Shown here: piece after piece, positions 4,339 through 42,777 of the stretch
Position numbering within the stretch: position 1 is the first letter of the stretch
Layout: the number at the start of each line of letters is the position of its first letter
From: Caldilineaceae bacterium
Lineage (GTDB): Bacteria; Chloroflexota; Anaerolineae; Caldilineales; Caldilineaceae
Direction: 5' to 3'
Length of the DNA stretch: 64,000 nt
Assembly: GCA_019637685.1 (NCBI GenBank)
Contig: JAHBVF010000015.1
Coordinates: 7,875-71,874 of the forward strand
Made by a program: the position numbers and the translations under genes
The notes under the pieces: model-generated
Database searches by the model: none
Seen by the model: only the letters and a program-made list of their open reading frames with translations
Told to the model about the DNA's origin: nothing

Positions 4339-5264
4339 TGTCCATTCCTTAGCAGGGGGAGAAGGGCCTGCACCCATTGATACAAGCGTGCGCGCACGGC
4401 CTGGATGCGGGCCTGGTTGGGGGGCTGAATGGGGGTGCGGGTGTGCTGATCCCCCACAAAGAGGCCCCGGTTGATCTCCACCATCAGCCCCCAATAGCTG
4501 CCACCGATGGCCTGCTGATAGGCCGGGTCGCAATAGTGGCGCAGGATGTAGCCGCCCGCAAATGGCTGGTTCAGGGCCACCACCGGCGCGGGCCGTCGGC
4601 TGTCCGGCTCCAGCAGGTCCAAGTCCGCGAAAATTTCCCCGGCAATCTCCCCGGCCTGGCGCACAAAGGCCCCGGGCGCGGTCAGCCGACGACCGGCGGT
4701 CAGTGGATCAGCGGCAGCCACGGCTTCTCCATCTGGCCCACCGAAGTTGCCAATGCAGATCAGCGGGCGCGCCTGGCCGGGATCGCCGTAGGCGCTGGGG
4801 CCGTGCTGGGCCATATTGTGGCAGTCCAGAAAGAGACGCACATCCCCCGCGTGTTGGCGCAGTGCCCCGTCCAGGGCCTGGTGAAAGGGACGCCAGGCCG
4901 TGTCCAGCAGGTCCTGCTGCTCGGCCCGGCCCAGGTGCGCAGTGTAGATAGGGTCGCCGTAGCTGGTCTGGCTTTTGACCGCGCCGTCGGGGTTGTCCAG
5001 GGAGTCGGGGGCGCGGTTGGCGTCGATGAGCACCCGGGCGGTGGGCATTGTCACCGCGGCCAGTGTCCCCTGTCTCCCGCCCAGCGTGGGATGGCTGAAG
5101 TCGAAAATCTGGTCGTTCCAGAGGTCGCACTCGTTATAGATGGTCACCTCGTCGATGGCGAGGCGCGCGGCCACGGATGGGGGCACAGACAGTCCCCCGT
5201 GGGGGATACTCTGGATAATGGGCAGGGCAGATGGCATGGGGTTTGTCTTCTGGATAATCGCCAT
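4335..5264 (-). CDS. N-formylglutamate amidohydrolase family protein
   Basis: PHGG.. block (IPHGGLSVPP) near N-terminus and overall FGase-like size. Start placed at MAIIQ, whose ATG overlaps the TrkH stop by 1 nt (TGATG). Confidence 0.55.
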   Translation of the reverse strand: MAIIQKTNPMPSALPIIQSIPHGGLSVPPSVAARLAIDEVTIYNECDLWNDQIFDFSHPTLGGRQGTLAAVTMPTARVLIDANRAPDSLDNPDGAVKSQTSYGDPIYTAHLGRAEQQDLLDTAWRPFHQALDGALRQHAGDVRLFLDCHNMAQHGPSAYGDPGQARPLICIGNFGGPDGEAVAAADPLTAGRRLTAPGAFVRQAGEIAGEIFADLDLLEPDSRRPAPVVALNQPFAGGYILRHYCDPAYQQAIGGSYWGLMVEINRGLFVGDQHTRTPIQPPNQARIQAVRARLYQWVQALLPLLRNGQ

Positions 5265-33594: not shown

Positions 33595-33960
33595 TATACG
33601 GTTGAAACCGCACAATCACCCGGAAACCGGAGGCTGACGGCGTGCCCACCAATCGTGCGGCTGCAAGCCGCACCTACGCATTCCCCCTACCGCACCCCAA
33701 AGACCTTCATCACCTCATCCCCCAAATGATTGATCACCTTCACCGCGATGCGCCTAAAGGCAGGCATCTGTAGGTGCGGTTTCCAACCGCACAATCACCC
33801 GGAAACCGGAGGCTGACGGCGTGCCCACCAATCGTGCGGCTTGCAGCCGCACCTACGCATTCCCCCTACCGCACCCCAAAGACCTTCATCACCTCATCCC
33901 CCAGATGATTGATCACCTTCACCGCAATGCGCCCGGAAGTGGGCTTGTCGAAGGGCCGGG
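33595..33960. repeat. tandem ~180-bp duplication comprising a REP doublet plus the last ~25 codons of mod
   Basis: Unit TTCCAACCGCACAATCACCCGGAAACCGGAGGCTGACGGCGTGCCCACCAATCGTGCGGCTGCAAGCCGCACCTACGCATTCCCCCTACCGCACCCCAAAGACCTTCATCACCTCATCCCCCA(A/G)ATGATTGATCACCTTCACCGC present twice (33602-33770 and 33782-33950). The second copy is the real mod 3' end. Confidence 0.75.
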
Positions 33961-36586
33961 AAATCTCGCTGTGCAGACTCTCCCAGGCTTCCTCGTCGAT
34001 CTCCGCCTTCAGCGTCGTCTTGAGCGAGCTGTAGGGGTCATTCGCCCCCAGAAAATAGGCGTGGCGCACAAAGAAGCTCTCCTCGTTGTAGTCCGTGTCG
34101 ATGAACCAGACCGCGATGTCATCCGGACCGCCCGACTGCACCTGGCCCGACTGGGGATGAAAGACATCCACCCCGTGAATCTGCACCCGGATTTGCCCGT
34201 CGCCCGTCGCCTGAATCTCGATGTCCGGCTCGCCGAAGATGACGAAGAGATTGCCCGCACCCGTGTTCTTGAGCGCATCGGCCATGTGCAGGTCCGCGTT
34301 CATGCGCGCTTTCAGCACAGGAATGCGCCCCAGCTTCTCGAACTCGGCGGAGTGGGCGTCGTAGTTGAAGGCGCAGGCGATCAGCACATCGAAGCCCGCA
34401 TCCCCCGCCTCCCTCGCCGCGGCCACCAGATCGGCCCTGGGCACAGTGCCAAACTCCGGGCCGATGAAGATGCCCGCCCGCCGCTCTTTGCCGTTCTCCC
34501 CCTCCTGATAGCGCCCCTCGGCGCACAGGTAATGGCCCGGCCAGCCGGTGAGGGTGGTGAAGCTGATGCGGTCCTCCTTGTGCGCCTGCTGTACCCCAGC
34601 CGTGCGCAGATTCTCCAAAATCACCTGGGTAAAGTCGATTTCGCTGGCGTACTTCTCCTTCTCCTCGTCGATAAAGTTGCCTGCGATCGGCTGCAACTCG
34701 TCGTTCTCGTCCACGGCCAGCACCCGGTGGGGCGAGAGCGACTCCACAGTGAAAGGCCCCGCCACCCGCACGGTATTGCGCTCCTCATAGGGTTTGTCGT
34801 AGAGGAACTCCTGATCCGAGTTGGCCGCAATCGAGGCGTCCATCTCCTGCTGGCGGGCGATGCGCTCGGTCCACCACGCCCCGTGCAGCTCTTTGGCCTG
34901 GGCCGACCACCCCTTCTCCGCCTCGCGGGGAATCTCCCACTCCTCCCAGGACTGGCCCAGAGCGGCGTTGAGCTGGCCGCGCAGGGGTTCCATCACCGCC
35001 TGAAACTGCTCCCAGATCACATCGATCTCGGCGTTGTTGGCGATGTCTTTGAGCATAATGTGGGGAACCCGCTCGTAGACAAAGCCGTGGCGGATGTTGC
35101 CGAAGGTGGGCGCAGTGGAGGGGGCGCTGCGGCTGACCTCCGCCTCTTTCAATTGCCCCGCCGGGGAATCGGCCAGCAGATAGTAGGGGTAGCGCGCCCC
35201 CATAATGCGGGCACGGGCCAGGGCCAGGGCCACCCGGCTGGTGTCGATGGTGATCCAGCGCCGCCCCCACTGCTCGGCGATATAGGCTGTGGTGCCAGAG
35301 CCACAAGTTGCGTCCAGCACAAGATCGCCCGGATCAGTGGTCATGAGAATGCAGCGTTGAATAACCCGCGTTGAGGTCTGTACTACGTAAATTTTGTCTT
35401 TGGCAAATGCACCAAACTGAGTATCCAGCCACCTATTATTCAAATTGGATACCGATCTTTCCGAGTAAAATTTCTTCACGCGAATTTGGGTTTCACTGAC
35501 CCTGACAATTCGATCTGCCTTTGCTATTCGATACATACCAACTGTATGTTCGTTACTCCAATGGCGAGCGGCTGATGGACGAAATTCCTGTCCTTGAAAT
35601 ACAAATACTTGCTCTTGGCTCGCTGCTCCCTGAGAGGTCAAATCTCCTAACTCGAAGCCGTCTTCATCCTGATTTTCTTTCGGCAAGAAGAGTGATCGAT
35701 ACTTCGTCTTGTCAGTTGCTTTTGCATACCATAAAACATAGTCGTTAACATTAGGAACGAAGTTCGATGTCCGGCCAGTGGAAGTGGCAAAACTAATGAG
35801 GGAAATGCAATTCTCCTCCCCAAAGACCTCATCCATCAGCGCCCGCACCCGATGCACATTCTCATCCCCGATCTGCACAAAGATCGACCCGCTCTCGGTC
35901 AGCAAATCTCGCGCCACGGTCAGCCGGTCGCGCAGATAGGTCAGATAGGAGTGAATGCCGTCCCGCCAGGTGTCCCGGAAAGCCTTCACCTGCTCCGGTT
36001 CCCGGGTGATGTGGTCGGCCTTGCCGTCCCGCACATCCCGGCTGGTGGTGGACCACTGGAAGTTGGAATTGAATTTGATGCCGTAGGGCGGGTCAATGTA
36101 GATGCACTGCACTTTGCCTCGCAGCCCCTCCCGCTCGGCCAGGCTGGCCATCACCTGCAAGCTGTCCCCCAGAATCATCCGGTTGGTCCAGTTGGCGTCG
36201 TGTTGATAAAAGTCCGTGGCCGTCGCCCCCTTCGGGATGCCGTTGAAGTCGGCGAAGAGGTCCAACTGCGCGGCCAACTCTTCCTGCCCGGCCGCGGCCC
36301 GTTCTGCACTCTGGCGCAGCAGGTCGTCGATCAGCACCTTCGGGTGTACCTTCTCCTGGATGTACAAGGGCGGCGCGGCCACCACCAGGTCGGACCAATC
36401 CTGCTCATCCTTGCCCCGCCAGACCAATTGGGGGTCCAAATCCCGGTTGCGCCGTGCATAGGCGATGCGGATGGGGCTTTTCTCCTCCTCCGCCATCACC
36501 GACTCGTATTCCGCGGTGGGGATGTTCGTGCGCCGGGCCTCGTCGTGTTTCAGGGTTTCTACGGTTTTGGGGGTGCGTGTCGCCAT
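33866..36586 (-). CDS. mod: Type III-like restriction-modification methyltransferase (Mod), N6-adenine/N4-cytosine DPPY class, long form
   Basis: 906 aa. DPPY catalytic motif (VQCIYIDPPYGIKFNSNFQ), C-terminal SAM-binding block LVLDATCGSGTTAYIAEQWGRRWITID, conserved N-terminal RRTNIPTAEY / PLYIQEKVHP blocks seen in Mod-type methylases, and a ~300-aa C-terminal extension. Confidence 0.85.
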   Translation of the reverse strand: MATRTPKTVETLKHDEARRTNIPTAEYESVMAEEEKSPIRIAYARRNRDLDPQLVWRGKDEQDWSDLVVAAPPLYIQEKVHPKVLIDDLLRQSAERAAAGQEELAAQLDLFADFNGIPKGATATDFYQHDANWTNRMILGDSLQVMASLAEREGLRGKVQCIYIDPPYGIKFNSNFQWSTTSRDVRDGKADHITREPEQVKAFRDTWRDGIHSYLTYLRDRLTVARDLLTESGSIFVQIGDENVHRVRALMDEVFGEENCISLISFATSTGRTSNFVPNVNDYVLWYAKATDKTKYRSLFLPKENQDEDGFELGDLTSQGAASQEQVFVFQGQEFRPSAARHWSNEHTVGMYRIAKADRIVRVSETQIRVKKFYSERSVSNLNNRWLDTQFGAFAKDKIYVVQTSTRVIQRCILMTTDPGDLVLDATCGSGTTAYIAEQWGRRWITIDTSRVALALARARIMGARYPYYLLADSPAGQLKEAEVSRSAPSTAPTFGNIRHGFVYERVPHIMLKDIANNAEIDVIWEQFQAVMEPLRGQLNAALGQSWEEWEIPREAEKGWSAQAKELHGAWWTERIARQQEMDASIAANSDQEFLYDKPYEERNTVRVAGPFTVESLSPHRVLAVDENDELQPIAGNFIDEEKEKYASEIDFTQVILENLRTAGVQQAHKEDRISFTTLTGWPGHYLCAEGRYQEGENGKERRAGIFIGPEFGTVPRADLVAAAREAGDAGFDVLIACAFNYDAHSAEFEKLGRIPVLKARMNADLHMADALKNTGAGNLFVIFGEPDIEIQATGDGQIRVQIHGVDVFHPQSGQVQSGGPDDIAVWFIDTDYNEESFFVRHAYFLGANDPYSSLKTTLKAEIDEEAWESLHSEISRPFDKPTSGRIAVKVINHLGDEVMKVFGVR

Positions 36587-36597
36587 TTGGATTGCCT

Positions 36598-37236
36598 TTG
36601 GTAGGTGCGGTTTTCAACCGCACATTTTCGATTGCCCCGTCAATATACGGGAATCGATTATCGTAGGTGCGGTTTGCAACCGCACGTTTTCGGAATGTCC
36701 CACATTGTGCGGGTTACGGATGGTGTGTGTGCGATTTGTAACCACAGATTCTTCGTCGTTCCCGCATTGTGCGGCTGCAAGCCGCACCTACGAATTGGAC
36801 GGTTGCCTTTTGTAGGTGCGGTTTGCAAAACCGCACATTTTCGGAATGTCCCACATCGTGCGGGTTACGAATGTTGTGTGTGCGATTTGTAACCGCACAT
36901 TCTTCGTCGTCCCCGCATCGTGCGGCTGCAAGCCGCACCTACGGGTTGGACGGTTGCCTTTGGTAGGTGCGGTTTGCAACCGCACATTTTCGGAATGTCC
37001 CACATCGGGCGGGTTACGGATGGTGTGTGTGCGATTTGTAACCGCACATTCTTCGCCATCCCCACATTGTGCGGCTGCAAGCCGCACCTACGGATTGGAC
37101 GGTTGCCTTTGGTAGGTGCGGTTTGCAACCGCACATTTTCGGAATGCCCCACATCGTGCGGGTTACGGATGATGTGTGTGCGATTTGTAACCGCACATTC
37201 TTCGTCATCCCCACATTGTGCGGCTGCAAGCCGCGC
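36598..37236. repeat. REP array L: ~4 tandem copies of a ~153-bp composite unit containing GTAG-type REP palindromes
   Basis: Unit GGTTGCCTTTGGTAGGTGCGGTTTGCAACCGCACATTTTCGGAATGTCCCACATCGTGCGGGTTACGGATGGTGTGTGTGCGATTTGTAACCGCACATTCTTCGTCGTCCCCGCATTGTGCGGCTGCAAGCCGCACCTACGGGTTGGAC repeated with few substitutions. Each unit has three hairpins. Ends at the RAYT stop. Confidence 0.85.
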
Positions 37237-37770
37237 CTACGGGTTGTCATCTTCGCTTTCTTGCCAATCGTATTCTGTGATGGATTCCGGCAATGCCCAT
37301 CCCCAGCCGTCGGGGTAGGCATTACGTTCCCGCCAGTGGTGGTAGCTGGAATGGGGCCAATCTTCCGGTCTGGCAACCAACCCGTGGTGCACCGGATTGT
37401 AATGGATGTAGTCCAGGTGGCGCTGAAAGTCGATTTCGTCCCGGATGATGTGGTCCCAGAATCCCTTTTGCCAGAAGTGCATTGGCCCAGAAGTTCCGAT
37501 TCGTTTTTTATACTCTTTGGTGAAATTCGGCTTGAGCGAATGCATAATATCGCTAAAATTGCTATCACCGGTGGGACGGATTAGCAGATGAAAGTGTTCG
37601 TGCAGAAAGACGTATCCCTGGGTGACAAAGGGGTGAAGCTCCTTCACATTGCCCAATATCTCACGCAAGAGGTCAAGATGCGTCTCTTCCCGAAAGACCG
37701 GGACACGGCGATCGACCACCTGCGTGATGAAGATGATTGCGTTGGGTACGTAATAACGTCGGATGTTCAT
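37237..37770 (-). CDS. REP-associated tyrosine transposase (RAYT; IS200/IS605-like Y1 HUH transposase)
   Basis: 177 aa. HUH motif HEHFHLLI and catalytic Tyr region FQRHLDYIHYNPVHHGLV. Flanked on both sides by REP arrays. Confidence 0.85.
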   Translation of the reverse strand: MNIRRYYVPNAIIFITQVVDRRVPVFREETHLDLLREILGNVKELHPFVTQGYVFLHEHFHLLIRPTGDSNFSDIMHSLKPNFTKEYKKRIGTSGPMHFWQKGFWDHIIRDEIDFQRHLDYIHYNPVHHGLVARPEDWPHSSYHHWRERNAYPDGWGWALPESITEYDWQESEDDNP

Positions 37771-37774
37771 ATTT

Positions 37775-38188
37775 TCCCGTGGGTGCGGTTTTCAACCGCA
37801 TAATTGTTGGCGTATCCATCATTTCCCAGGATTCGATACCTGTGCGGCTGCAAACCGCATCTACAATTTGAGATGTTGTGGGTACGGTTTTCAACCGCAC
37901 AATCGTCGGCGTTTCCTTCATTTGCCAGGACTCGGTACCGTTTTGTAGGTGCGGTTTTCAACCGCACAATCGTCGGCGTTTCCTTCATTTGCCGGGATTC
38001 GATACCTGTGCGGCTGCAAGCCGCACCTACAATTTGAGATGTTGTGGGTGCGGTTTTCAACCGCACAATCGTCGGCGTTTCCTTCATTTTCCGGGATTCG
38101 ATGCCTGTGCGGCTTGCAGCCGCACAATTGTCGGCCTTCCCGCCACCTACCGGAATTCGATACCTGTGCGGCTGCAAGCCGCACCTAC
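37775..38188. repeat. REP array R: ~3.5 tandem copies of a ~117-bp unit with REP doublets; last REP overlaps the res stop codon
   Basis: Unit TGTGGGTGCGGTTTTCAACCGCACAATCGTCGGCGTTTCCTTCATTTGCCGGGATTCGATACCTGTGCGGCTGCAAGCCGCACCTACAATTTGAGATGT. The final GCACCTAC provides the TAG stop of res. Confidence 0.85.
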
Positions 38189-41100
38189 AAAATGGCCGCT
38201 TCAATCAACTTGTTGAAATCCGCCTCAATCTCAAAGACGGCTTTGAACTCGGCAAACTGCCAGCGGCCCAGTGTGCCCAAATTGTTCACCCCCGGTACCC
38301 AATAGCTCTTCATCGTGTTGGACTTGTCCTTCACATCCTCGCCCCGAAAGCCCTTGATTTCCACCACCAGATTGAGCAGGTCAGCCCGCCCGTCGTCGAT
38401 CTGCACGATAAAGTCCGGGATATATGTGCGTTTGGTCGAGCCGTAGAGGTAGGGCACTTCCAGCCCCAAGCCCTGGTTCTTCACATAGGCCCGCACACGG
38501 GGATGGGCCTCGGCCACCCGGCAGAACTCGGATTCCCAGTCGCTGTCACAGACCACCCAGTTGATGTGGCAGTGCTGGGGAGATGTCTTCCAGCGGGTCT
38601 CTTTGGAGGTGTTGAAGTTGACGTGGATGGTGGAGCCGGTGGGGTTATAGGCGTCCAGAATCGCTTTGATGGGCCGGTCGTCGGCCATGGATTCGGTGAT
38701 GGCGGCGGCGATACGCTCACAGGCCATATCCCCTATCTCTCGGTAGATCAGTTGGGCCGGATACGTGCCACCGGTACAGCGCAGATAGCCCCCTTCCAAC
38801 CACTGCTGGGCAATGCGCTTCAACTGGCCGAAGAGATGCAGCTTGGGTTCTTCGCCCGGATCACGGAATTTGCTGTAGAGCAGATGCTTGGCCAGATGGT
38901 AGAGCAGCGTGGACTGGCGCATCCCTTCCAGATGCTTCACATTCAGGTCGATCCCTTCGCCGATAATGCCCTCGTTGCGGGTCACCGAAGGGCCGACCAG
39001 CAGCGGCGTCAACTCCAGCACAGAATCTGGGCCAAAGGTGGCCGTGAGCTTCTCTGCCGGCAGCTCCACCCGATAGCCCTCCACCCGGGGAAATTGAATC
39101 TCCAAAGCGTCCCGCTCTGGTCGCACAGCCATCACCTGCACGGTCTGTTTGGGTGGTTTGGGGGCCACCACCACTGGCTTGGCCGTGAAGTCAAAGGGGA
39201 TGCCGAAGACATCCGCATACTCCACATTGAACAGCCCCTCCTCGTTCAATTCGTAGGATTGGCGGCGCAGGGCGCGGCCCACCACCTGCTCGCACAGCAG
39301 TTGTGTACCAAAGGCCCGCACCCCCAGCACGTGGGTCACGGTGTTGCAGTCCCAGCCCTCGGTCAGCATGGAAACCGAGACCACACAGCGCACAGATTCG
39401 CCCAGCCGCCCTTCCTTGCCTACGGTATTCATCACCTCCCGCAGCAACTCCTGGTCGCTAATGTTCTGGCCGTCGGCCTGGTTGCCGCTGCGCTCCACAA
39501 TCTCCCGGCGAAAGCGTTCGATTTCGTCCGCCGCCATCTCCCGAAAATCGTTGTCCAGAGCGTCGCCGGACTCAAGCTGTTCGCTGTCGATGAGCAGGGT
39601 ATTGGGCCGGGCCAGCCGGTTGCCCCCTTCGTCGTAGTTGCGGAAGAGGGGCAGCCGTCCTGCATTGTAGGCTTCCGTCTCCCCATCTTCCCCCAGCCGT
39701 TGAAAGCCGGAGATATAGTCGTAGACCAGCTTGGAGGTGGAGGTGTTGTTGCAGACCACAATAAAGACCGGCGGCGTCCCAATCCCAGCCCCCTGCCAGA
39801 GATCGAATATCTTCTCGTAGTGGCCGTAGAGGGCATCCAGCGCGGTCTGAAGCTCGGCGGGCAAAGCCAGCGGGTCCAGATTCTTGCTGGCCTTGCCCCG
39901 CCCCTTCTTGGGCATCTTCTTGCCGATATGCTCCCATAGGTTGCGGAATTTGGGCATATCCCCGCCGGGGATATTGTCGGCCACAGGCACACGGGGCAGC
40001 TTGACAATCCCACACTCGATGGCGTCCATCAGGGAGAAGTCGCTGGCTGCCCAGGGAAAGAGGGTGCCTTCGGCATAGCCGGAGCCGCGCAGGAAGAAAG
40101 GCGTGGCCGAGAGGTCATAGACCTTCTGCACCCCCAGCTTGCGCTTGACCACTTCCAGCCCGGAAATCCACAACCGGGCGGCCTCGTTGGCCTTCTGGGC
40201 CTCCTTGCGGTCGTCCCCCTTCAAATCCTCAAAATCTTCGTTGTCCGGTTTCTCCCGGTAGCAGTGGTGGGCTTCGTCGTTGAGCACCAGCACATTCTTC
40301 ATGCCCATCAGTTCCGGCATCACCCGCTGGATCATTTGGCCTTCGCTCTCCAATGTCTGCAACTCCGGCCCTCGCCCTTGCAGAAATTCCCGGCTGGTCT
40401 TGGAGAGGCTCAGACGTTCGCGCAGTTTGAAGGAATGGTAGTTGGTGATGACGATTTTGGCCCGGTCCAGATCGCCCAGCATATCGCCGGGCACCAGCTC
40501 CCGGCTGCGGTAGTAGCTGTCCGGGTCGTTGGGGTGCAGCACCCGCAGGCGGTCCCGAATGGTGATACCCGGCGTCACAATCAGAAAGCCCCGGGTAAAG
40601 GCGCGGCTGCGGGGATGGCGCACCGCGTTGATGGTCTGCCAGGCAATCAGCATGGCCATCACTGTCGTCTTGCCTGCACCCGTAGCCAGCTTCAGCGCAA
40701 TCCGCAACAACTCCGGGTTGGCCTGTTCGCTGGCCCCCTGGAGCAGGTCCAGAGTTTCCTTGCCCTGGGCCGAATTGGGTGCGACCTCCGCCAGCCAGAT
40801 GGCCGTCTCCACCGCCTCCACCTGGCAGAAGAAGGGGCGAATGCCCTGAAAGGGATAGCTGCGCCAGTGTTGCAGCAGTCGCTGGGTCTCCGGCGTCACC
40901 CCCCACTTGCCGGGGTCGGGAATCTGCCGCCAGCGGTCCACCTGGGCGCGGATGGCGTTGATGTTGCCGGTGGTGTCGTATTGCTGCTCGTCCGTGGAGA
41001 TGCCCTCTTCTTCCCCCAGCACCAGGGCCAACTGTTGATCCTTCGACTTGCGCCGCTTCTTGGGCTTGGGCACAGGGGTCACAAACTTGGCCGTGCGCCG

Positions 41101-41238
41101 AAAGTCGAGAATCTGATTGGTGGGTTGGCCGTCTGCGTCCAGTTCCCAATGGCGGGCTGGGTAGGTGTAAGGGGAGTTAAGGATGGGTTTCTCGAAGAAT
41201 TGTTCTGTCATCGTGTTCCTATATTTACGCGGTTGCAC
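38185..41238 (-). CDS. res: Type III restriction enzyme Res subunit (SF2 helicase + endonuclease)
   Basis: 1017 aa. N-terminal FFEKPILNSPYTYP...TPETQRLLQHWRS block; Walker A LATGAGKT; DEAH box LVLNDEAHHCY; helicase motif VI region QVVGRALRR; C-terminal endonuclease-like domain. Confidence 0.85.
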   Translation of the reverse strand: MQPRKYRNTMTEQFFEKPILNSPYTYPARHWELDADGQPTNQILDFRRTAKFVTPVPKPKKRRKSKDQQLALVLGEEEGISTDEQQYDTTGNINAIRAQVDRWRQIPDPGKWGVTPETQRLLQHWRSYPFQGIRPFFCQVEAVETAIWLAEVAPNSAQGKETLDLLQGASEQANPELLRIALKLATGAGKTTVMAMLIAWQTINAVRHPRSRAFTRGFLIVTPGITIRDRLRVLHPNDPDSYYRSRELVPGDMLGDLDRAKIVITNYHSFKLRERLSLSKTSREFLQGRGPELQTLESEGQMIQRVMPELMGMKNVLVLNDEAHHCYREKPDNEDFEDLKGDDRKEAQKANEAARLWISGLEVVKRKLGVQKVYDLSATPFFLRGSGYAEGTLFPWAASDFSLMDAIECGIVKLPRVPVADNIPGGDMPKFRNLWEHIGKKMPKKGRGKASKNLDPLALPAELQTALDALYGHYEKIFDLWQGAGIGTPPVFIVVCNNTSTSKLVYDYISGFQRLGEDGETEAYNAGRLPLFRNYDEGGNRLARPNTLLIDSEQLESGDALDNDFREMAADEIERFRREIVERSGNQADGQNISDQELLREVMNTVGKEGRLGESVRCVVSVSMLTEGWDCNTVTHVLGVRAFGTQLLCEQVVGRALRRQSYELNEEGLFNVEYADVFGIPFDFTAKPVVVAPKPPKQTVQVMAVRPERDALEIQFPRVEGYRVELPAEKLTATFGPDSVLELTPLLVGPSVTRNEGIIGEGIDLNVKHLEGMRQSTLLYHLAKHLLYSKFRDPGEEPKLHLFGQLKRIAQQWLEGGYLRCTGGTYPAQLIYREIGDMACERIAAAITESMADDRPIKAILDAYNPTGSTIHVNFNTSKETRWKTSPQHCHINWVVCDSDWESEFCRVAEAHPRVRAYVKNQGLGLEVPYLYGSTKRTYIPDFIVQIDDGRADLLNLVVEIKGFRGEDVKDKSNTMKSYWVPGVNNLGTLGRWQFAEFKAVFEIEADFNKLIEAAIL

Positions 41239-41464
41239 CGATTTGGGCAGCCAGCGAACTGGTGATTATGTGTTCCTATCCTCGTCTTTGACTTCTAAGG
41301 TATCGATCCAACTCGGTTCTGTTTCCATTTCGTTATGTCACTTGGGGGGGCTCAAGCGCTGATTGCAGACCGAGCAGCGTTAGCCACGCTTTCGATTTAT
41401 CCCTGCGTAAGTCTAGCATAGAGTACTTGCCTGGACAATTGATTGCATGCAGCGTCGGAACCCC

Positions 41465-41762
41465 TGCACAAGCACCAGTCATCGCTGCACAACTACTCGT
41501 CATCATTGCACAAGCACCGGTCATCGCTGCACAAACACTCATCACCCCTGCACAGCCATCCACCATCACCGCGCAACTACTCGTCATCACTGCACAGCCA
41601 CCCATCATCGCCGCGCAAGCACTCATCATTGCCGCGCAAGCAGCAGTCACCAGCGCACAAACACTCGTCATCACTGCACAGCCACCCATCATCGCCGCGC
41701 AAGCACTCATCATTGCCGCGCAAGCAGCAGTCACCAGCGCACAAACACTCGTCATCACCACA
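41465..41762. repeat. 14-copy tandem repeat with 21-nt period (GCACAAnCACTCGTCATCnnn); all frames open
   Basis: Minus-strand frame gives heptads xxMxxCA (VMTSVCA LVTAACA AMMSACA AMMGGCA ...). Plus-strand frames give His/Cys-rich (CTSTSHR CTTTRHH ...) or xxIxAQx heptads. Units are not identical (substitutions between copies). Confidence 0.8.
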
Positions 41763-41821
41763 CAGACCCCGATTCCTAACCAGCCCTTTTCTTGGAGATT
41801 AAAGAATTGATCGGGCAATAG

Positions 41822-41891
41822 CGTAGGTGTGGCTTGTAGCCACACGTCTCTGGGCATCCCTTATCTGTGCGGCTTCAAGCCGCGCCTACCC
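41822..41891. repeat. REP doublet (GTAGGTGTGGCTTGTAGCCACAC ... GTGCGGCTTCAAGCCGCGCCTAC)
   Basis: Same GTAG-type palindromes as the RAYT-flanking arrays, ~580 nt upstream of res. Confidence 0.7.
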
Positions 41892-42129
41892 GTCCCCAAT
41901 TTTTTCTTGATCCACAACCAAAGGTGGTCACTGAGGCATTTCTGCAAATACCAAGTTAATATTTTGCAACATTACGCAAAATCTACTATAGTCCGCTCTC
42001 TTTTCGTGTGATAATTTGTGGCCAATCGTAATTGCAATTGCCGATTCCTAACGTTGTTCGATTTGATTTCATGCGGGCCAGGGCTGAATGCCACAGCAGG
42101 GCCTGCCACTATCCAGAAAGGAAATTCAT

Positions 42130-42777
42130 ATGTCTTCCCGTTCGATTGCCAACCGCCTGGAGTCTGTGCGTCTGGCCGTGACCAACGCCTTGGCCGAAAG
42201 TGAACTCCTGGCCGCGCTGGCACCCTTTGGCTATGACGAGGCCCGCCTGCAAGAGGGCAAAGGGTTGTATGAGAATGCACTGGCTGTCTGGCAGAGCCAA
42301 CAGCAAAAACAGAGCCGGCGGCGGGCTGCCACCGCGGCCTATTATCAAGCCGATGGCGTGGCCACCCGTGCCTATATGCGGACCGTCAAGCTCTGCCGCA
42401 CCCTCTACCGGGACGATCCCGTCACCTATCAGGCCCTGGGCCTGGTTGGAACCCGACGTAAAACATTCGCGGCCAAAGTAGCCCAGATGCGCCACTTCTA
42501 CACCACCGCCCTGGGCAGCCCACAGATTCTGTCCACCCTGGCCAGTTACGGCTTTCCAGAGAGCCAGTTGCAGGCCGACTTTGCCCTGGTGGCCGCGCTG
42601 CAAACAGCCCGCTCCCAACGGGAGGTGGAAAACGGCGCGGTGCAGGACGCCACCCAAAGCCGGTCACAGGCTTTCGCGGTGCTGGAAGGCTGGATGCGGG
42701 AATTTATCACTGTTTCCCGCCTGGCCCTGGAAGAGACCCCCCAACGGCTGGAGATGCTGGGACTGGCCGACAGTTGA
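42130..42777 (+). CDS. hypothetical protein
   Basis: Start MSSRSIANR with AGAAAGGAAA RBS. 215 aa, alpha-helical. No family recognised. Terminator-like hairpin AGTAGGAGGGG...CCCCTCCTACT follows at ~42800-42855. Confidence 0.5.
   Translation: MSSRSIANRLESVRLAVTNALAESELLAALAPFGYDEARLQEGKGLYENALAVWQSQQQKQSRRRAATAAYYQADGVATRAYMRTVKLCRTLYRDDPVTYQALGLVGTRRKTFAAKVAQMRHFYTTALGSPQILSTLASYGFPESQLQADFALVAALQTARSQREVENGAVQDATQSRSQAFAVLEGWMREFITVSRLALEETPQRLEMLGLADS

Follow-up and report, generated by a model that had tools for sequence, protein, structure and literature searches.

The 64,000-nucleotide stretch of Caldilineaceae DNA analyzed here (the window; contig JAHBVF010000015.1) harbors a tandem repeat array of 14 head-to-tail units of 21 nt on the plus strand at positions 41466-41759. 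The array is placed in an 890-nt gap between the res gene of a type III restriction-modification (R-M) system (38185-41238, minus strand) on one side and an open reading frame (ORF) of 215 amino acids belonging to the PQLLE family (42130-42777, plus strand) on the other. The initial annotation, which was based on the sequence alone, described the repeat and its position next to res and did not remark on the downstream PQLLE gene, the conserved partner of the array. The features of the locus are as follows:

33866-36586: mod, the partner of res
38185-41238, minus strand: type III restriction res gene (PF04851), transcribed away from the array and occupying the variable "defence slot" on the array side
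41391-41441, plus strand: conserved block of ~51 nt containing TTTATCCCTGCGTAAGTCTAGCATAGAGT, adjoining the array on its upstream side and marking where the module begins on the left
41466-41759, plus strand: tandem array, 14 x 21 nt, very probably non-coding, of apparently variable copy number (9 units in the related contig L044)
41823-41889, no strand assigned: doublet of repetitive extragenic palindromic (REP) elements, REPIN-like, with copies at 41823-41845 and 41867-41889, between the array and the PQLLE promoter
41964-41992, plus strand: sigma-70-type PQLLE promoter, TTGCAA-17-TATAGT, 9/12 matches, within the motif ATTACGCAnAATCTACTATAGT
42024-42107, plus strand: 5' leader of the PQLLE mRNA, with a AATCGTAATTGCAATTGCC element at 42024-42042 and a hairpin at about 42075-42107, conserved in clade A
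42130-42777, plus strand: PQLLE-family gene, 215 amino acids (NCBIfam NF052641.1), the conserved partner of the array

Analysis with Tandem Repeats Finder called a period of 21 nt with 14.2 copies and 67% matches over 41466-41764, in agreement with the 14 copies counted initially, and also called higher-order periods of 42 and 84 nt. Units 7-10 and 11-14 are identical at 83 of 84 positions. The unit consensus is GCRCAR-N6-RTCAYC-N3, with positions 1, 2, 4, 5, 9, 15, and 16 invariant, and the plus strand is C/A-rich (42% C, 16% G). Just one such array is present in the window; a degenerate three-unit pattern matched this array and nothing else in the 64 kb, where shuffled sequences gave an expectation of 0. 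The plus-strand RNA was predicted to be essentially unstructured (-46 kcal/mol over 294 nt, z = +0.5), and pairing of either strand of the array with the PQLLE 5' region or leader, evaluated as antisense interaction, was at chance level (z about 0).

The 215-amino acid protein matched the NF052641.1 model ("PQLLE family protein") over its full length with 211 bits (cutoff 80, E 1.4e-62), and five distant homologues scored 226-260 bits against the same model. A hypothetical protein encoded in a metagenome-assembled genome (MAG) of the Caldilineaceae (Chloroflexota) was identical to it (100%), and many homologues were found. With clustering at 50% identity, an exhaustive profile search returned 3179 clusters that pass E <= 1e-3, of which 634 pass E <= 1e-30; the members are almost all 211-220 amino acids long. 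Tertiary structure prediction using AlphaFold2 (pLDDT 93.7) showed an all-helical protein that is internally duplicated and contains two helices, each about 56 residues long. Searches of Pfam, PADLOC, and PDB with the protein gave no match, the family was not found in the viral-contig, plasmid, and phage collections searched, and the literature library searched for the PQLLE name and for "VIPAKAGIQ"-type motifs contained nothing relevant.

Fifteen non-redundant PQLLE loci were compared, with the 650 nt upstream of each gene taken as the upstream zone (9.1 kb in total) and the other 156 kb as the reference. Arrays with a period of 19-23 nt occurred 12 times in the upstream zones and not once in the remaining 156 kb. 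The locus L069 adds an array with a 61-nt period, bringing the number of independent lineages with an array directly upstream of PQLLE to 13 of 15, the other twelve having a 21-22-nt period. Homologues with an array include proteins of no more than 28% identity, and their hosts span AT-rich to GC-rich DNA. The arrays outside the window, each given with the identity of the adjoining PQLLE protein to that of the window, are:

L061, 75% identity: unit TCCGAAGCACTGGTCATCACG, 11 copies; syntenic, with epimerase and photolyase genes downstream
L057, 76% identity: period 21, about 12 copies
L045, 78% identity: period 21, about 11 copies
L048, 78% identity: TGCA/CTCCCC-type units with an 84-nt higher order, about 12 copies
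L068, 77% identity: period 21, at least 9.7 copies
L067, 75% identity: period 43 (22 + 21), 3.9 copies
L053, 35-36% identity: unit AAGGAACGGTAATGCAGCATT, 5.7 copies
L073, 33% identity: unit TAGGAACGACTCAACGAGCCA, about 10 copies
L074, 34% identity: unit AGCAACGGCTCAGGAGCAAGT, 8.2 copies
L077, 37% identity: unit GATAGAACGGCGGGTAGGAAC, at least 7.4 copies
L070 (AT-rich host), 28% identity: unit TTTTTATAATACCACGAAAGC, at least 12.2 copies
L069, 35% identity: period 61, 4.1 copies

The unit sequences are unrelated between PQLLE loci, and the period is constant at about 20.3-22 nt in most of them; this constant length matches either two B-DNA turns or a protein footprint that does not change. Within clade B, the units have a common AGGAACG/RAACGR core on the gene strand. 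The comparison of genomic loci shows a tight coupling of ~21-nt arrays to PQLLE genes despite the lack of a conserved unit sequence, and it is quite likely that this coupling is functional or mechanistic. The association would also be explained if the array were a neutral minisatellite, the region upstream of PQLLE being a hotspot of slippage or unequal recombination and the period of ~21 bp a general mutational preference with no function. Fast unit turnover, higher-order duplications of 42, 63, and 84 nt, differences in copy number from strain to strain, the presence of 21-nt arrays in other, unrelated contexts, and two PQLLE lineages that lack an array are all in agreement with neutrality. 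However, the position of the array relative to the gene is maintained over protein identities of 28-100% and among hosts that differ widely in GC content, 12-13 arrays fall in 9.1 kb against none in 156 kb, the clade B units retain their core, and a conserved block of ~50 nt abuts the arrays. A functionless array is considered unlikely on these grounds.

Comparison of repeat numbers pointed to variation among close relatives. The contig L044 (1.7 kb, from another assembly) is about 100% identical to the window in its flanks and carries 9 units against 14; its array lacks 84 nt and 21 nt relative to that of the window and differs at a few internal bases. Similarly, L057 and L065 carry about 12 and 10 units, respectively. 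The copy number appears to vary between strains on the basis of these assemblies, with collapse of the repeat during short-read assembly as the alternative. Many PQLLE genes are located on short contigs (about 1 kb) that break off at the array or close to it, and in L047 a run of N lies within the array (about 4460-4560). The arrays seem to break or gap short-read assemblies, and repeat counts derived from MAGs should be read as minima or as uncertain.

A genome scan with the three-unit pattern returned unrelated coding AQ repeats and separate, hairpin-linked 21-nt arrays, none of them near a PQLLE gene. Homology of these arrays to the window array was rejected, since the pattern itself imposed most of the shared bases. 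The hairpin-linked arrays consist of repeated GCGCAG-N6-GTCATTCCC units and end in the hairpin GTCATTCCCGCGCAGGCGGGAATCCAG, the unit corresponding to the left arm of the hairpin plus 6 nt. They were observed at L001, L004, L005, L010, L012, L018, L020, L025, L030-L032, L036, L040, and L043, in hosts from phyla including Gammaproteobacteria, a Neisseriaceae MAG, Planctomycetes, Dehalococcoidia, and Poribacteria, and in L012 and L032 an inverted copy or array is present downstream. No PQLLE gene was found within 8 kb of them. These arrays are a separate class with the same 21-nt period.

The coding potential of the window array was evaluated in all six frames. Three ORFs extend over it, namely, one of 174 amino acids on the minus strand (41333-41857) with Cys at each seventh residue, one of 110 amino acids on the plus strand (41447-41779) with CT.T.HH heptads, and one of 127 amino acids on the plus strand (41427-41810) with AQxxVIx heptads. 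The initial annotation held that every frame is open across the repeat and suggested a variable surface or metal-binding protein, noting a possible N-terminal transmembrane segment in the Cys frame and a possible metal-binding peptide in the CT.T.HH frame. The two ORFs do exist, and the number of open frames is four of six, the two closed minus frames having 2 and 21 stops. With codon statistics trained on 20 long genes of the window, the six array frames gave log-odds of -0.03 to -1.5, whereas genuine genes read in frame averaged 0.44, with 0.14 as their 5th percentile. The AQxxVIx frame scored best (-0.03), the Cys frame gave -0.25, and the His/Cys/Thr frame gave -0.46. The GC content at third codon positions was <=0.68 in any array frame and about 0.75 in the neighboring genes. 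No Shine-Dalgarno sequence was found at the candidate starts of the array ORFs, whereas the 215-amino acid gene has AAAGGA 8 bases before its ATG. Family searches of Pfam and PADLOC with the four open frames gave no match. A search of the region against Rfam gave only sub-threshold matches to archaeal C/D-box RNAs (20 bits vs. a threshold of 45), which arise because GUGAUGA is present in each minus-strand unit; the D box is absent.

The homologous arrays point in the same direction. All plus frames are closed in the arrays of L053, L073, L074, and L077, all minus frames in that of L067, and all six in that of L069. In the syntenic orthologue L061, the counterpart of the Cys frame reads SDVMTSA and contains no Cys, and the His residues are likewise not kept. 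A frame-preserving period, likened initially to those of coding minisatellites and contingency loci, is not a property of the group, as the periods of 43 nt (L067) and 61 nt (L069) are not multiples of three and a 20-nt unit inside the L074 array shifts the frame midway. ORFs annotated over such arrays run on the plus strand in L044 (92 amino acids) and L045 (130 amino acids) and on the minus strand in L057, L061, and L047 (104-118 amino acids); their strand and frame differ from locus to locus, and no ORF of shared strand and frame was found across the homologous arrays. The heptad "peptides" are accounted for by 21 being 3 x 7 in a stop-poor, C/A-rich unit. Gene callers repeatedly turn such arrays into spurious heptad "proteins" or N-terminal extensions.

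With atypical codon usage and no common ORF in homologous loci, the two outcomes named initially as refuting it, the surface or metal-binding protein is not upheld. Four open frames, the calls made by annotators at five loci, and A/G variation at unit positions 3 and 6 that would be synonymous both in the AQ frame and in the antisense Cys frame could still be taken to favor a heptad peptide, encoded either by the minus strand (Cys-rich) or by the plus strand (AQxxVIx or His/Cys/Thr-rich). A further coding possibility is an N-terminal extension of PQLLE itself. Among the PQLLE gene models with long N-terminal extensions, 8 of 10 show a 7-residue periodicity there, which implies that the gene caller read through the upstream 21-nt array. 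These read-through models independently support the association of arrays with PQLLE genes. The eight models fused in frame to the array (P0215, P0212, P0196, P0264, P0258, P0259, P0189, and P0143) have extensions of 50-120 amino acids, and six of them start with M[QHT]RNGK; in the window, ATGCAGCGTCGGAAC lies right before the array (41447-41461). This start may represent a boundary element kept across loci, real translation within one clade, or a gene-calling artefact. Taken with the stopped frames, the periods of 43 and 61 nt, the disagreement of annotated strands, and the origin of the 174-amino acid N-terminus described below, a coding array is judged very improbable. The window array is, with high confidence from these sequence criteria, non-coding.

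The initial annotation also placed the array among REP elements and considered a non-coding, REP-associated minisatellite. REP elements of one family (GTAGGTGCGGCTTGCAGCCGCAC) do flank the array, with 18 copies in the window, most of them as inverted pairs. Copies are located at 33606-33933, 36663-37246, 37782-38190, and 41823-41889, and long composite REP arrays (periods of 149-179 nt) fill the mod-res spacer of the type III R-M system. The REP doublet starts 64 nt downstream of the array. The ATG (41857) of the 174-amino acid minus ORF falls between its two hairpins, and the N-terminus of that ORF (MPRDVWLQATPT...), including the putative transmembrane segment, is a reverse translation of the REP. 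It is conceivable that the array is a by-product of REP/RAYT activity, given the nearby doublet, the REP arrays in the mod-res spacer, and the 21-nt arrays of other phyla, whose units derive from the left arm of a REP-like hairpin. This origin is already contradicted by the syntenic loci L061, L067, and L068, which have arrays and no REP doublet at the same place, and the unit bears no similarity to the window REP; it is regarded as extremely improbable. Of the earlier description, the non-coding part stands; the REP link of the array is incidental as judged from the orthologous loci, the conserved partner being the PQLLE gene. Elsewhere in the window, two heptanucleotide tandem repeats were observed, CCCAATC x5.3 at 1112-1148 and GGTCAGT x3.6 at 2374-2398.

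The gene adjoining the array is nearly always a defence gene, and the far side of PQLLE is occupied by housekeeping genes that vary by locus. The defence genes found at the individual loci are:

Window: type III res
L061 (same chromosomal slot): type IIG R-M
L047: GmrSD and ResIII
L057: Cmr / type III-B
L045: WYL-WCX regulator and Csc2
L054: type I-C cas
L073: TIR
L074: MmeI-type R-M
L077: OLD nuclease and an R-M system, both downstream
L053: NERD, downstream

The same slot, with PQLLE, epimerase, photolyase, and UbiA downstream, contains a type III R-M system in the window (38185-42777) and a type IIG R-M gene in L061 (1280-5645). This slot looks like a hotspot of defence-gene exchange bounded by the array. 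In the MAG GCA_023384455.1, two PQLLE copies (L047 and L057) are placed beside different defence systems. In terms of gene neighborhoods, the module is one that recurs at the borders of defence islands. No report of a fixed array-PQLLE association at such borders was found, and the association appears to be new.

The order of elements in the module, as read from the aligned loci, is a block of about 50 nt, the 21-nt array, the promoter and leader, and the PQLLE gene. The block at 41391-41441 is 84% identical to L048 3735-3785 despite differing outer neighbors (res vs. GmrSD), and the corresponding blocks of L061 and L045 are 82% identical. The block aligns with the PQLLE promoter region and carries a motif related to the palindromic promoter motif. 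It did not pass the promoter scan, being weakly promoter-like, and is a candidate weak promoter or binding site. The PQLLE promoter is conserved in all clade A loci and in L069. Its motif ATTACGCAnAATCTACTATAGT forms part of an inverted repeat in relatives, which overlaps the -10 box and reaches ATATAGTAGATT-ACGCAC-AATCTACTATAT in L045; the motif may be an operator. A AATTGCAATTGC element lies beyond the inverted repeat in the promoter-leader region.

The promoter-leader region (41964-42107) is strongly conserved at the DNA level in L045, L048, L057, L061, L067, and L068. The leader hairpin has the loop ATTGCAA in relatives and was predicted in L061, L068, L057, and L045 with changed stem bases. 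This conservation suggests a putative repressor operator together with a cis-regulatory RNA. In clade B, no promoter is present between array and gene; in L073 and L077, a loose scan detected a TATAAT box with a TTG-type -35 that stops 3-8 nt short of the first unit. A similar TATAAT box precedes the array of L067, a clade A locus. In L074, the array is separated from the gene by a clear intrinsic terminator. Beyond the stop codon of PQLLE, only a terminator or palindromic element is present. Long palindromes (GGACGCGGATAnACGC...GCGTnTATCCGCGTCC-type) follow the stop in L061 (5660-5760), L054 (4990-5090), L067, and L068, and probably represent another dispersed element family doubling as a terminator.

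It is proposed that the window contains a non-coding array that is functionally coupled to the PQLLE gene, a reading to which we assign a probability of roughly 0.55. With respect to the mode of action, we infer that an RNA mode is favored, with a phased array at the DNA level close behind. That the array acts as RNA is a tentative proposal with somewhat less than an even chance. The array would be transcribed on the gene strand as a repeat RNA, either as a leader or as a separate transcript, and its units would constitute reiterated binding sites for the PQLLE protein. Such a repeat RNA could titrate or auto-regulate PQLLE by the logic of type III toxin-antitoxin and abortive-infection (Abi) systems. 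The unit length would then be set by the footprint of a conserved protein, and the unit sequence would co-drift with PQLLE. In favor of an RNA are the TATAAT boxes preceding the arrays of L073, L077, and L067, the lack of a promoter between array and gene in clade B, the terminator of L074, the core that clade B units have in common on the gene strand, and the essentially unstructured plus-strand RNA predicted for the window array.

Several observations weigh against this proposal. Structure searches with the PQLLE model returned only generic coiled-coil matches and no recognizable nucleic-acid-binding or nuclease fold. Two PQLLE lineages, L054-56 and L071/72, have no array; in L054-56 the PQLLE gene comes immediately after type I-C cas2 and a CRISPR repeat. 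Very different units adjoin proteins that share 75-79% identity, which is awkward for sequence-specific recognition, and non-coding 20-21-nt arrays are also found away from PQLLE genes, showing that the period is not PQLLE-specific. Both in the window and throughout clade A, the best promoter is located after the array and before the gene, so that the array would need a promoter of its own, and the upstream block is only weakly promoter-like. The clade B promoters were not called by a stricter scan, their -35 boxes matching at 3/6 positions. The window-clade proteins are basic (pI about 9) and those of clade B are acidic (pI 4.5-5.1); the idea that a basic PQLLE protein coats nucleic acid was weakened by the latter.

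Alternatively, the array may work as DNA, with phased protein sites, one per two helical turns, through which it would control or shape both the PQLLE promoter and the divergent defence operon as an operator or architectural element, in the manner of iterons or centromere-like operator arrays. This is in agreement with a unit that stays at 20.3-22 bp, about two turns, while its sequence changes, and with the arrays of clade A and L069 being situated upstream of a conserved promoter in a divergent intergenic region. The palindromic operator-like motif overlapping the promoter and the related motif in the block upstream of the array fit equally, as does the proposal of a protein polymerizing on constant-size repeats (Subirana and Messeguer; PMC8161180). 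However, PQLLE contains no helix-turn-helix or ribbon-helix-helix domain, and the clade B proteins are acidic. The clade B array is apparently downstream of the sole promoter-like element, and the position of the array relative to the promoter is not conserved. Moreover, PQLLE was not found in the searched plasmid and phage collections, the usual home of iterons and centromeres. Action as DNA is held to be somewhat less probable than action as RNA, and the RNA proposal is retained as the one preferred.

A more far-reaching version of the RNA proposal would be that the ~21-nt array and PQLLE form an unrecognized, widespread repeat-RNA/protein defence or addiction module, type III-like or Abi, with an all-helical effector and a very short unit. 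This version is speculative and, as it stands, unlikely. If true, it would provide the first protein partner and a function for part of the "enigmatic" 20-21-nt repeats.

Plasmid and phage iterons and centromere-like operator arrays, such as the 22-bp iterons of R6K, parC, and sopC, are comparable to the PQLLE arrays in being tandem direct repeats of about 20 bp, helix-phased, of variable number, and located beside a promoter. The PQLLE arrays differ in their chromosomal location, in the lack of a Rep, ParB, or ParR-type protein or an NTPase, and in the absence of PQLLE from the plasmid and phage collections searched, and they are not regarded as an iteron or centromere system. TIGR-Tas is a repeat-RNA guide system with 36-nt units. 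Another such system, VIPR, has 5-nt GGY/NN units (doi 10.64898/2026.04.26.720920). Like these two systems, the PQLLE locus combines a tandem repeat with one small protein in a context of phage conflict, and conserved and variable positions alternate in the unit. Unlike in these systems, the PQLLE fold is neither Nop nor RAMP, and the variable positions are of low diversity. Three array units were searched in viral contigs for guide-like exact matches, and none was found. A guide array of the CRISPR, TIGR-Tas, or VIPR kind was ruled out by the low-diversity variable positions, the lack of a viral match for the three units, and the unrelated fold.

In type III toxin-antitoxin and Abi systems (ToxIN, AbiQ, CptIN, TenpIN, and AbiF-RCd22), the units are 34-50 nt in 2-5.5 copies, and the layout is promoter, repeats, terminator, and gene (PMC12373285). 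Similar to these systems, short direct repeats lie directly upstream of, and co-oriented with, a single gene of about 200 amino acids in the window and 12 further lineages. The architecture persists even as the repeats diverge in sequence, the setting is one of phage defence, and in L074 a terminator separates repeats and gene. The PQLLE arrays deviate in having 21-nt units in 6-14 copies, an all-helical coiled-coil protein that lacks a ToxN, AbiQ, or HEPN signature and is not an endoribonuclease of the ToxN/AbiQ/CptN/TenpN type, and, in the window clade, a strong promoter between array and gene. By analogy, the array-PQLLE module resembles type III toxin-antitoxin systems in architecture and fails to do so in toxin fold, unit size, and unit number.

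Bacterial tandem repeats of a constant size of 20-21 nt and variable sequence, non-coding and of unknown function, have been cataloged as many dispersed families per genome with no associated protein (Subirana and Messeguer; PMC8161180). The window array shares with them the 20-21-nt unit (about two DNA turns), the lack of coding function, the species-specific sequence, and a copy number that is not conserved between strains. It differs in being a single array linked to one gene family, that of PQLLE, in a constant upstream position. One set of such repeats, cataloged so far without a function or protein partner, is here locked to one large family, and the array together with its 215-amino acid protein offers a concrete, testable pair for asking what such satellites do. 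The pair may reveal a new repeat-based mechanism of regulation or defence.

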